Assembly: GCF_013315695.1 (NCBI RefSeq) | Contig: NZ_CP054353.1 | Length of the DNA: 64,000 bases | Reading direction: 5' to 3' (one strand) | Source: Escherichia coli | Lineage (GTDB): Bacteria; Pseudomonadota; Gammaproteobacteria; Enterobacterales; Enterobacteriaceae | Shown: one piece after another, positions 33,853 to 37,958 of the stretch | How the letters are laid out: each line of letters starts with the position of its first letter | Position numbering within the stretch: the first letter of the stretch is position 1 | Made by a program: the position numbers and the translations under genes | The notes under the pieces: model-generated | Databases searched by the model: none | Told to the model about the DNA's origin: nothing | Seen by the model: the letters and a program-made list of their open reading frames with translations, nothing else

Positions 33853-35283
<1,431 letters not shown>

Positions 35284-35466
35284 GCTCTGCCTCAGCGCCG
35301 CCTTCTCAGAAAAGAGTCGGCGCTGAAATTCTCCTTTCGTTCTGGAAAGCGCCTCGCATAATCTGAAGAAAACCAATGTAATACGCACATCTGGATTGTT
35401 ACCGGCAGATGCCCGGCGTATAGCTGATTCCATTATTCAACACTGCGCCATATGAAGGGACAGATA

Positions 35467-36566
35467 ATGGAATCGCTCTCAGAAGGAACCACAGCAGGCT
35501 ACCAGCAAATCCACGACGGCATTATTCATCTGGTCGATAGCGCCCGGACGGAAACGGTACGTAGTGTTAACGCGTTAATGACCGCCACATACTGGGAAAT
35601 TGGCCGACGAATTGTCGAATTTGAACAAGGTGGCGAGGCCAGGGCTGCGTATGGTGCGCAGCTAATCAAGCGACTATCAAAGGATTTACGTCTAAGGTAT
35701 AAGCGTGGGTTTTCCACCAGGAATTTATGGCAGTTTAAGAATTTTTATATTTGTTTTCAACGAATTGAAATTGTGCAGACACTGTCTGCACAATTCGCCA
35801 GACACTATCTGGCGAATCTTGCCATTTAGCGCAACTGGCCAAATCCTTCCCCCTGCCCTGGTCCACTTACGTCCGTTTGCTTTCTGTTAAAAACGCTGAC
35901 GCTCGTAGCTTTTATGAGAAAGAGACACTCCGCTGTGGCTGGTCTGCTCGTCAGCTCGAACGGCAAATTGCGACCCAATTTTATGAGCGGACACTACTGT
36001 CACATGACAAATCAGCCATGCTGCAACAACACGCTCCTGCCGAGACGCATATTCTTCCGCAACGGGCGATACGCGATCCCTTTGTGCTCGAATTTCTGGA
36101 ATTGAAAGATGAATATTCAGAATCCGATTTTGAGGAGGCGCTGATCAACCACCTGATGGATTTCATGCTGGAACTTGGGGATGATTTTGCCTTTGTTAGT
36201 CGACAGCGAAGGTTACGCATTGATGACAACTGGTTTCGTGTCGATCTGCTGTTTTTCCACCGCCGTTTACGCTGCCTGCTAATCGTCGATCTAAAAGTGG
36301 GCAAATTCAGCTATAGCGATGCCGGACAGATGAATATGTATCTCAACTACGCCAAAGAGCACTGGACGCTACCGGATGAAAATCCGCCCATCGGTCTGAT
36401 TCTCTGTGCAGAGAAAGGAGTCGGAGAAGCGCATTATGCACTGGCTGGTTTGCCTAACACCGTTCTGGCGAGTGAATATAAGATGCAACTACCTGATGAA
36501 AAACGACTCGCGGATGAACTCGTTCGAACACAGGCGGTGTTAGAGGAAGGCTATAGACGCCGTTAA
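35467..36566 (+). pseudogene. yhcG: yhcG (DUF1016 / PDDEXK-nuclease-like), apparently frameshifted into two ORFs
   Basis: N-terminal ORF (MESLSEGTTAGYQQIHDGIIHLVDSARTETVRS...) stops at TAG 35827..35829; C-terminal homologous frame (...WSTYVRLLSVKNADARSFYEKETLRCGWSARQLERQ...) is open from 35769 to TAA 36564..36566 in a different phase. The phase change falls inside tandem palindromes at 35770..35817. It may be a genuine strain pseudogene or a sequencing error. Confidence 0.6.
35770..35817. repeat. Tandem pair of 25-bp palindromes inside yhcG (copy A 35770..35794, copy B 35793..35817)
   Basis: A = ATTGTGCAGACA-C-TGTCTGCACAAT (perfect); B = ATTCGCCAGACA-C-TATCTGGCGAAT (one mismatch); copies overlap by 2 nt, period 23 bp. 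Confidence 0.85.
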
Positions 36567-36581
36567 TTTCAGCAGTTTCGA

Positions 36582-36606
36582 ATTCTCCAGACACTGTCTG
36601 GAGAAT
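36582..36606. repeat. Third member of the same palindrome family, between convergent yhcG and yhcH
   Basis: C = ATTCTCCAGACA-C-TGTCTGGAGAAT (perfect 12+1+12); same CAGACA-C-TGTCTG core and ATT/AAT ends as A and B, with complementary substitutions in the variable triplet. May double as a terminator hairpin but lacks a strong U-tract. Confidence 0.85.
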
Positions 36607-36625
36607 CTTTAAAACGAACTAAGTT

Positions 36626-37958
<1,333 letters not shown>

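Follow-up and report, generated by a model that had tools for sequence, protein, structure and literature searches.

The window analysed here, a stretch of 64,000 nucleotides (64 kb) of Escherichia coli contig NZ_CP054353.1, carries a copy of yhcG, a nuclease gene of the DUF1016 family, and the locus raises two questions: is this gene still alive, and what are the tandem palindromes within which its reading frame changes? The upstream frame begins at ATG 35467 (MESLSEG...RIEIVQTLSAQFARHYLANLAI) and stops at TAG 35827-35829. The downstream frame, closed on its 5' side by TGA 35766-35768, stays open from 35769 to the stop codon at 36564-36566 and contains ...TIRQTLSGESCHLAQLAKSFPLPWSTYVRLLSVKN...; the two frames overlap by 61 nt. 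An earlier note on this DNA had described yhcG as split by a frame change within tandem palindromes, with some 60 nt of overlap between frames in different phases; this description holds, and translation returns exactly the frame ends that it gave. Jointly the two frames reproduce an intact YhcG protein, and by sequence the gene is a member of the YhcG/DUF1016 family (PF17761 + PF06250; COG4804; PDC-S02), but a frameshifted one: the window contains no single uninterrupted yhcG open reading frame (ORF), the frame changing at 35789-35796. The window sequence is identical to that of E. coli AF3, in which the Prokaryotic Genome Annotation Pipeline (PGAP) has called a 'frameshifted' PDDEXK nuclease pseudogene with exactly the same bounds.

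The nature of the lesion becomes apparent from the nearest intact allele, that of KOr019 (1113 bp, 370 aa), which differs from the window by 16 substitutions in 1367 nt and is 97.9% identical to the window gene. Pfam finds DUF1016_N at residues 19-179 (E 1.6e-42) and YhcG_C at residues 204-355 (E 3.8e-56) of this intact allele. KOr019 carries the two palindromic units of the window, A and B, unchanged and 36 bp apart in one ORF (...IVQTLSAQFTPTIRQTLSGES...), and the allele reads ...RIEIVQTLSAQFTPTIRQTLSGESCHLAQLAKSFPLPW.... Compared with it, the window has lost exactly 13 bp (CACAATTCACCCC), CACAATTC-ACCCC-CACAATTC having been reduced to a single CACAATTC. The missing segment was bounded by two 8-bp repeats of which one is left, the pattern of a slipped-strand deletion, and the lesion is very probably a 13-bp slippage deletion between these direct repeats. 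We propose that a two-unit allele lost the 13 bp by slipped-strand mispairing between two copies of CACAATTC, one of them forming the end of the right arm of palindrome A and the other lying just before palindrome B; with this loss the distance from A to B shrank from 36 to 23 bp and the frame shifted.

A different origin had been suggested by the earlier note, namely a 23-bp tandem duplication, or a template switch at a quasi-palindrome, in an allele with one unit. Its arithmetic is right, in that the palindromes are 23 bp apart (2 mod 3) and removal of 23 bp restores the frame, and the peptides that it read, I-V-Q-T-L-S from copy A in the upstream frame and I-R-Q-T-L-S from copy B in the downstream frame, match the translations. 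Furthermore, the peptide 'restored' in this way resembles that of a natural one-unit allele of 358 aa (P0006; ...EILQTVSGGSCHLAQLAKSF...), and a template-switch frameshift does occur at this array in strain M8. However, A and B share only 66% identity over 29 nt and so are not the product of a recent duplication, and each is identical to a unit of the two-unit intact allele that is also the closest relative overall. A template switch as the window lesion fares no better, since the deletion lengthens neither palindrome and does not improve the complementarity of their arms. Intact alleles with both palindromes in one ORF, which the note had named as evidence against itself, exist in the form of KOr019, but with a spacing of 36 rather than 23. 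Several palindromes in one ORF are in fact found in the reference alleles in which it had proposed to count them, the K-12 type carrying three. The alignment to KOr019 rules out a 23-bp duplication, and we regard the proposed origin as a whole as extremely improbable.

To survey the deletion, a 111-nt probe was compared with 5426 complete E. coli genomes. The deleted form was present in six of these, and the intact form, longer by 13 bp, in about 470, including IAI39 and CE10. The six carriers come from the UK, the USA and South Korea, with one origin unrecorded, and in all three that were checked (AF3; MS 21-1, USA; Z1322HEC0002, South Korea) PGAP has called the same 1100-bp gene 'frameshifted'. 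Of 1367 sites, 29 differ between Z1322HEC0002 and the window but only 16 between intact KOr019 and the window; the same 13-bp deletion therefore lies on two haplotypes, either through repeated origin or through transfer by recombination. In this snapshot of the population an array frameshift is seen in 7 of the 479 genomes with this type of allele, and a 13-bp deletion is not readily reversible. Hairpin-forming regions are error-prone on some sequencing platforms, and the indel might on that account be a sequencing or assembly artefact in an intact gene. Since the same 13-bp gap is shared by six complete assemblies that stem from separate projects in several countries and represent two haplotypes, an artefact is the least probable of all the explanations considered here.

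We next consider whether any product could be made from the split gene. Inspection of the 61-nt overlap revealed no slippery heptamer for a programmed -1 frameshift, and rescue by such a mechanism was rejected on this basis. The first start codon of the downstream frame is TTG 35877, upstream of which no Shine-Dalgarno-like sequence was seen on reading, and separate expression of the C-terminal part from this codon appears unlikely. Judged from its sequence, yhcG is dead in the window lineage. The nuclease motif residues LELGDD, RVDLLF, IVDLK and AGQMNMY are intact in the downstream frame; in an alignment of 53 sequences E240, D264 and K281 are invariant and D279 is nearly so, identifying a PD-(D/E)XK motif. 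At window position 36198 a serine replaces a glycine that is nearly invariant in close homologues (FVGRQRRL to FVSRQRRL), which may reflect relaxed constraint after inactivation; Z1322HEC0002, with the same deletion, keeps the glycine, and the natural homologue P0061 also has serine. yhcG is also among the genes listed as mutated in the laboratory strain JM109 (revised strain genotype table, PMC11148124).

As for the protein fold, Foldseek searches with the C-terminal domain gave NucS (2vld) and EndoMS (5gke) as the best matches, together with Bax1 and Can2-type nuclease domains, in agreement with the relationship of the YhcG family to Holliday-junction resolvases (Kosinski et al., PMC1189080). 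A sequence search of the PDB returned no relative with a solved structure. PADLOC assigns the intact allele to PDC-S02 (E 2.5e-133), a status of candidate phage defence only. The features of the window locus are collected in Table 1.

Table 1. Features of the yhcG locus in the window, with positions counted from its first nucleotide.
Feature	Position	Strand	Basis or remark
yhcG pseudogene (DUF1016_N + YhcG_C PD-(D/E)XK nuclease), frameshifted, 1100 bp	35467..36566	+	identical to the AF3 'frameshifted' coding sequence
Upstream reading frame, 120 codons then TAG	35467..35829	+	translation; leaves family sequence after ...IVQTLSAQF
Downstream homologous frame (-1 relative to upstream frame): rest of DUF1016_N and whole nuclease domain	35769..36566	+	translation
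Palindrome A (unit 1), AATTGTGCAGACA-C-TGTCTGCACAATT, 13-nt perfect arms around C35782	35769..35795		encodes I-V-Q-T-L-S-A-Q
Deletion junction, single surviving 8-bp direct repeat CACAATTC	35789..35796		alignment with intact KOr019 allele
Palindrome B (unit 2), ATTCGCCAGA-CACTA-TCTGGCGAAT, 10-nt perfect arms	35793..35817		encodes I-R-Q-T-L-S-G-E in downstream frame
YhcG_C PD-(D/E)XK nuclease domain region, NucS/EndoMS-like fold	36063..36518	+	Pfam residues 204-355 of intact allele, mapped to window
Putative relic segment after yhcG stop, containing palindrome C	36567..36616		in-frame reading and similarity to units A and B

Palindromes A and B start 23 nt apart in the window, and B, when folded around a single-base centre, gives 12 of 13 pairs. 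A third palindrome, C (ATTCTCCAGACA-C-TGTCTGGAGAAT, 36582-36606), absent from the earlier note, lies 16 nt past the yhcG stop; over 29 nt it matches unit B at 90% identity, on its left side the flank is similar to the one beside unit A, and all yhcG-carrying Escherichia loci examined contain it. The core CAGACACTRTCTG occurs at only these three places in the window (chance expectation 0.11; count reached in 0 of 100 shuffles). The three palindromes are among 13 perfect hairpins in the window with arms of at least 10 nt. Whereas at least eight of the other ten have the A-run/T-run flanks typical of terminators, a terminator and promoter scan found neither A, B nor C to be terminator-like, and they do not qualify as intrinsic terminators. 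The middle stem bases differ between the three copies (GTG, CGC and CTC), yet each copy is self-complementary. E. coli genomes contain the palindrome at a median of two places (maximum six), and a dispersed element of the repetitive extragenic palindromic (REP) type was rejected on this count and on the confinement of the three window copies to yhcG. Upstream of the gene, at 35326-35349, GAAATTCTCC-tttcgtt-CTGGAAAGC bears a loose likeness to a decayed palindrome unit, a weak resemblance that may be due to chance.

Across E. coli, yhcG alleles contain a tandem array of one to three units of 36-39 nt, each centred on a perfect palindrome roughly 25 nt long, and whole units of the form I-x-Q-T-[LVP]-S-[GA]-[EQK]-x account for the differences between intact YhcG proteins of 349, 358, 370, 375 and 382 aa. 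In the K-12/O157 type (375 aa) a single ORF contains three palindromes spaced 39 nt apart. In the AlphaFold model (mean predicted local distance difference test score, pLDDT, 75.8), the two units correspond to residues 102-119, which lie between helices and have pLDDT below 50. From this model, YhcG probably tolerates sequence change in the palindrome-encoded loop of its N-terminal domain.

In order to see how far the palindrome extends in the family, 80 loci were picked by peptide patterns in the nuclease domain, blind to the palindrome. A perfect or near-perfect palindrome of 17-31 nt was present in 76 of them, representing nine phyla, about 270-340 nt into the gene and often as two units. 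The taxa concerned are Enterobacteriaceae, Burkholderiaceae, Coxiellaceae, Propionibacteriaceae and Bifidobacteriaceae as well as cyanobacteria, Chloroflexota, Planctomycetota, Acidobacteriota, Verrucomicrobiota and Bacteroidota. In all 113 units the dyad centre falls at codon phase 0, the first base of a codon, as it does in palindrome A. Watson-Crick pairs are found in 87-93 of the 93 distinct units at distances 2-8 and 12 from the centre, and the middle stem covaries (G:C 42 and C:G 46; T:A 60, C:G 18 and G:C 10; T:A 31, G:C 22 and C:G 19). Overall pairing is 91.9% against 77.5% in shuffles and 24-44% in slid-partner controls, and double-sided changes number 157 against 52.6 +/- 5.4 when shuffled, a value reached in 0 of 500 shuffles. 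Perfect dyads are enriched 115-fold in the linker zone relative to the rest of the loci. When codons were redrawn synonymously according to each gene's own usage, a mean of 6.2 of 12 pairs formed against 10.9 observed, and the observed symmetry was reached by 164 of 21,800 redraws (0.75%).

The palindrome is retained where the encoded peptide has changed, as in Bifidobacteriaceae (ILESAIPES; arms CTGGAATC/GATTCCAG), Propionibacteriaceae (ILQSAIGES), Phycisphaerales (ICPTPSGK) and Prosthecobacter (ISAMALRN). Moreover, a subfamily of about 34% identity from Bacteroidota and Ignavibacteriota (query L119) carries AATTGTGCAAG-N5-CTTGCACAATT at the same place, encoding I-V-Q-x-P-L-A-Q-L and having its outer arms in common with E. 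coli unit A. As read from these sequences, it is the Watson-Crick self-complementarity of the DNA that is preserved, not the peptide. No paper linking DUF1016 or yhcG with a palindrome was found in the literature searched, nor any description there of such an array as a DNA feature shared by DUF1016 genes across phyla. The inactivated gene already carries an annotation as such and is ordinary.

A palindrome that lies on the transcribed sense strand in every homologue could be kept for the sake of the mRNA, as a coding-region hairpin that would affect the translation rate, decay or processing of the message for a potentially toxic nuclease. A stable hairpin is predicted for A and B together (-19.8 kcal/mol, z -8.1, with DNA parameters only). 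Among the non-Watson-Crick pairs, however, G:T (11) is no commoner than A:C (13), and G:U makes up about 1% of cells, unlike in real RNA helices; since an RNA helix would tolerate G:U, the constraint looks like one on DNA complementarity. The innermost pair, between the third base of the Thr codon and the second base of the next codon, was considered as a way to tell duplex symmetry from a hairpin but set aside: it gives A:T 36, G:C 22, G:T 16 and A:C 16, a weak association confounded by GC content. An Rfam scan of 35200-36900 at permissive E-values returned only two chance snoRNA matches, so that with neither an Rfam family nor G:U tolerance the site does not behave as a structured RNA element. 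Nor is it terminator-like, and the palindrome persists in untranslated relics (see below). A role as an mRNA hairpin is consequently improbable.

The explanation that we favour for the locus as a whole, with a probability of about 0.6, is that the window holds a gene killed by slippage within a palindrome array that is maintained by template switching and acts as a mutational hotspot. Template switching at quasi-palindromes would keep each unit perfect, and the permissive loop, predicted to be disordered, would tolerate the amino acid changes that result. Maintenance of inverted repeats in this way is documented for E. coli and has been proposed as a mechanism of conservation (PMC5941160; bioRxiv 10.1101/2021.04.15.439925). 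Taken by itself, templated correction from arm to arm is put forward tentatively, at somewhat less than even odds. It is favoured because it gives strictly Watson-Crick pairs, because each copy is self-complementary while the copies in one genome differ, and because the M8 allele shows template switching acting at the yhcG array. In M8 (record L003, 662-718) a 7-bp insertion (TGGGGGT) shifts the frame and converts unit A to CGAATTGTGGGGGTGAATTGTGCAGACA-C-TGTCTGCACAATTCACCCCCACAATTCG, the arms growing from 13 to 28 nt to give a 57-bp perfect palindrome, as a template switch at a quasi-palindrome would. We infer that the array is a lasting hotspot at which units are gained and lost, small indels shift the frame and larger rearrangements end at palindrome edges, and that the window deletion is one such event.

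Rearrangement endpoints cluster at the palindromes, as other E. coli alleles show. The deletions in alleles P0064 and P0029 begin at a unit. In the many E. coli strains of the YA-1 type (record L086, 1972-2440; also L088 and L090), an unrelated segment of about 470 bp stands in place of copy C and the C-terminal two thirds of yhcG, the left breakpoint lying exactly at the 3' edge of the third palindrome. The replacement encodes a 101-aa protein annotated as 'transposase' (WP_000639208.1), for which PADLOC gave no match. In Nissle 1917 (record L089, 1201-1226) and other strains without yhcG, the 67-bp spacer between gltD and nanQ holds a solo perfect palindrome, AAATTCGCCAGACA-G-TGTCTGGCGAATTT, with 14-nt arms; its right flank is that of copy C, and the palindrome itself has the same sequence as the first internal unit in the K-12/O157-type allele. 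The strains of phylogroup B2 that lack yhcG retain this solo palindrome.

Copies of the palindrome outside an intact gene are found elsewhere as well. Read in frame past the stop codon, copy C gives FQQFRILQTLSGES, which resembles the internal sequence ...FQRIEILQTLSGES, and we infer that it is a relic of another yhcG copy or allele, since clearer cases of such relics occur elsewhere. In an Ignavibacteria locus (L131, 1-320), where a DUF1016 gene lies between two hsdM genes, an upstream ORF of 42 aa (MDFNITLIINKDNNAIVQLPLAQLSWYNHN...) is a collapsed DUF1016 copy that retains the palindrome: the junction between the end of hsdM and the start of DUF1016 (aggagaatttgaag.gaattggttATG) has been duplicated, and the first copy has collapsed to the 42-aa relic. 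On viral contig L127 an internally deleted second DUF1016 copy keeps the palindrome, and on viral contig L124 two relics of 179 nt flank a two-gene cassette. Cassettes of this kind (176-190 aa and 126 aa) lie between palindrome-bearing DUF1016 relics at 4686-6186 in L124 and at 8200-10602 in L127, where the cassette adjoins a full-length DUF1016 gene; we suspect that the two genes are a putative toxin-antitoxin pair. Two Gemmataceae loci have palindromes of the family style 70-76 nt past the gene. A scan of viral contigs with the DNA pattern gave 38 loci, almost all with near-perfect palindromes, at 24 of which a YhcG homologue contains or adjoins the palindrome, whereas for the other 14 no such gene is present in the stretch of sequence available; a scan of viral contigs with a protein pattern and the YhcG alignment gave no confirmed relative. 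A mobile cassette bounded by palindromes was considered and rejected, as the segment between the in-gene and orphan copies varies by lineage: it is the C-terminal two thirds of the gene in Escherichia, the N-terminal third in L131 and the two-gene cassette in L124 and L127. The orphan copies are better accounted for by gene decay and turnover than by one mobile unit.

Several considerations weigh against maintenance by template switching. The M8 allele is a singleton among the 5426 genomes, and an assembly error is possible there. In the family survey, only units with a dyad score of at least 10 of 13 entered the pair counts, a choice that makes the percentage paired too high, and the sequences are related, so that the shuffle counts cannot be read as probabilities. 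Neutral self-maintenance hardly explains why about 95% of loci have retained at least one unit despite their very deep divergence, and it leaves unexplained the CAGAC/GTCTG core, which is nearly invariant from Proteobacteria to Bacteroidota. Decayed copies also keep the palindrome, as seen in Escherichia copy C, the B2 solo copy and the L131 and L127 relics. Near-universal retention, conserved core and relic survival all fit a selected cis-acting site too, and such a site accounts for them better than templated correction does.

In that case YhcG or a partner protein would recognise the element, either as a symmetric duplex or in the form of an extruded cruciform or hairpin, and it might serve in autoregulation, as a self-encoded site of cleavage or suicide, or as a recombination site for module exchange, with the window lesion as collateral damage. 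The conservation of the core across phyla, the strictly Watson-Crick symmetry without tolerance of G:U, the constrained choice of codons and the survival of the palindrome through peptide change are consistent with this. So are its retention in non-coding relics beside DUF1016 genes in four lineages, the 14 of 38 viral-contig matches without a DUF1016 gene nearby, the breakpoints exactly at palindrome edges, and a nuclease fold nearest to NucS/EndoMS in a family related to Holliday-junction resolvases (PMC1189080). On the other hand, the copies within a genome differ in the middle stem, which fits intrastrand pairing or templated correction better, and one sequence-specific dimer site was rejected as the sole explanation on the same evidence. 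Furthermore, the element is not dispersed (it is found at a median of two places in E. coli genomes, and in the window nowhere but at yhcG), and B2 strains keep a solo palindrome without yhcG at the locus. We consider a selected cis-acting element unlikely, although it is the alternative with the greatest weight. Marginally less likely still is the more specific proposal that the palindrome is a putative functional, self-encoded symmetric or cruciform site carried since before the subfamilies of about 34% identity split. If the functional-site reading were true, solo copies and relics would be active sites and not debris.

With respect to the surroundings, the yhcG region is flanked by gltD (+ strand, ending at 35283) and nanQ (- strand, 36626-37090). 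In the window lineage gltD is followed directly by yhcG after a 183-bp spacer (35283-35467), whereas a K-12-type record (L005, 1-356) has yhcF upstream of yhcG; the block between gltD and yhcG in the latter is absent from the window. The interval between gltD and nanQ is a variable spot, only 67 bp long in B2 strains.

The array can be compared with several known systems. Rickettsia palindromic elements, and REP elements with their REP-associated tyrosine transposases (RAYTs), are short gene-associated palindromes, some of them in frame in genes, with solo intergenic copies. The yhcG palindrome differs in that it is not dispersed genome-wide and in that its position is homologous by descent, not the result of repeated insertion; the associated protein is a PD-(D/E)XK nuclease and not, as in RAYTs, an HUH transposase. 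Length variation of intragenic tandem repeats is familiar in restriction and defence genes, for instance in the 12-bp repeat of the hsdS central region of EcoR124I/II, and in simple-repeat phase variation. Like those repeats, the yhcG array gains and loses short units in frame, undergoes occasional frameshifts and lies in a defence and restriction neighbourhood, but its unit is 36-39 nt long and palindromic rather than a simple-sequence repeat.

A closer likeness is with the quasi-palindrome template-switch hotspots of the E. coli thyA and lacZ reporters (PMC5941160; PMC7202029; bioRxiv 10.1101/2021.04.15.439925). There too, short inverted repeats have their arms mutually corrected into perfect palindromes, with paired 'compensatory' changes and local frameshifts, and the M8 +7 allele has the exact signature. 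Unlike these hotspots, the yhcG repeat lies in coding sequence at one homologous position of a protein family found in nine phyla, its palindromes form a tandem array with a conserved core, and the window lesion is a direct-repeat deletion. In Nematomorpha mitochondria, too, perfect inverted repeats lie in coding sequence, with both arms translated and the protein functional (PMC6649704). Those are up to 284 bp long, lineage-specific and spread over many genes of one genome, in contrast to the yhcG palindromes of about 25 bp, which belong to one gene family and are shared across phyla.

For the window strain, the inactivation of yhcG means that the gene should not be counted as a live nuclease in hypotheses of defence or DNA processing. 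More generally, a candidate phage-defence nuclease family carries in its coding sequence a DNA-level signal that has outlasted most of the surrounding protein sequence. If this signal is only self-maintaining, it would be an unusually clean natural case in which template switching has preserved an inverted repeat through deep time, creating a local fragility that shows in the gain and loss of units, in frameshifts and relics, and in the endpoints of rearrangements. If, instead, it is a recognised site, it would provide a first concrete handle on what YhcG proteins act on.

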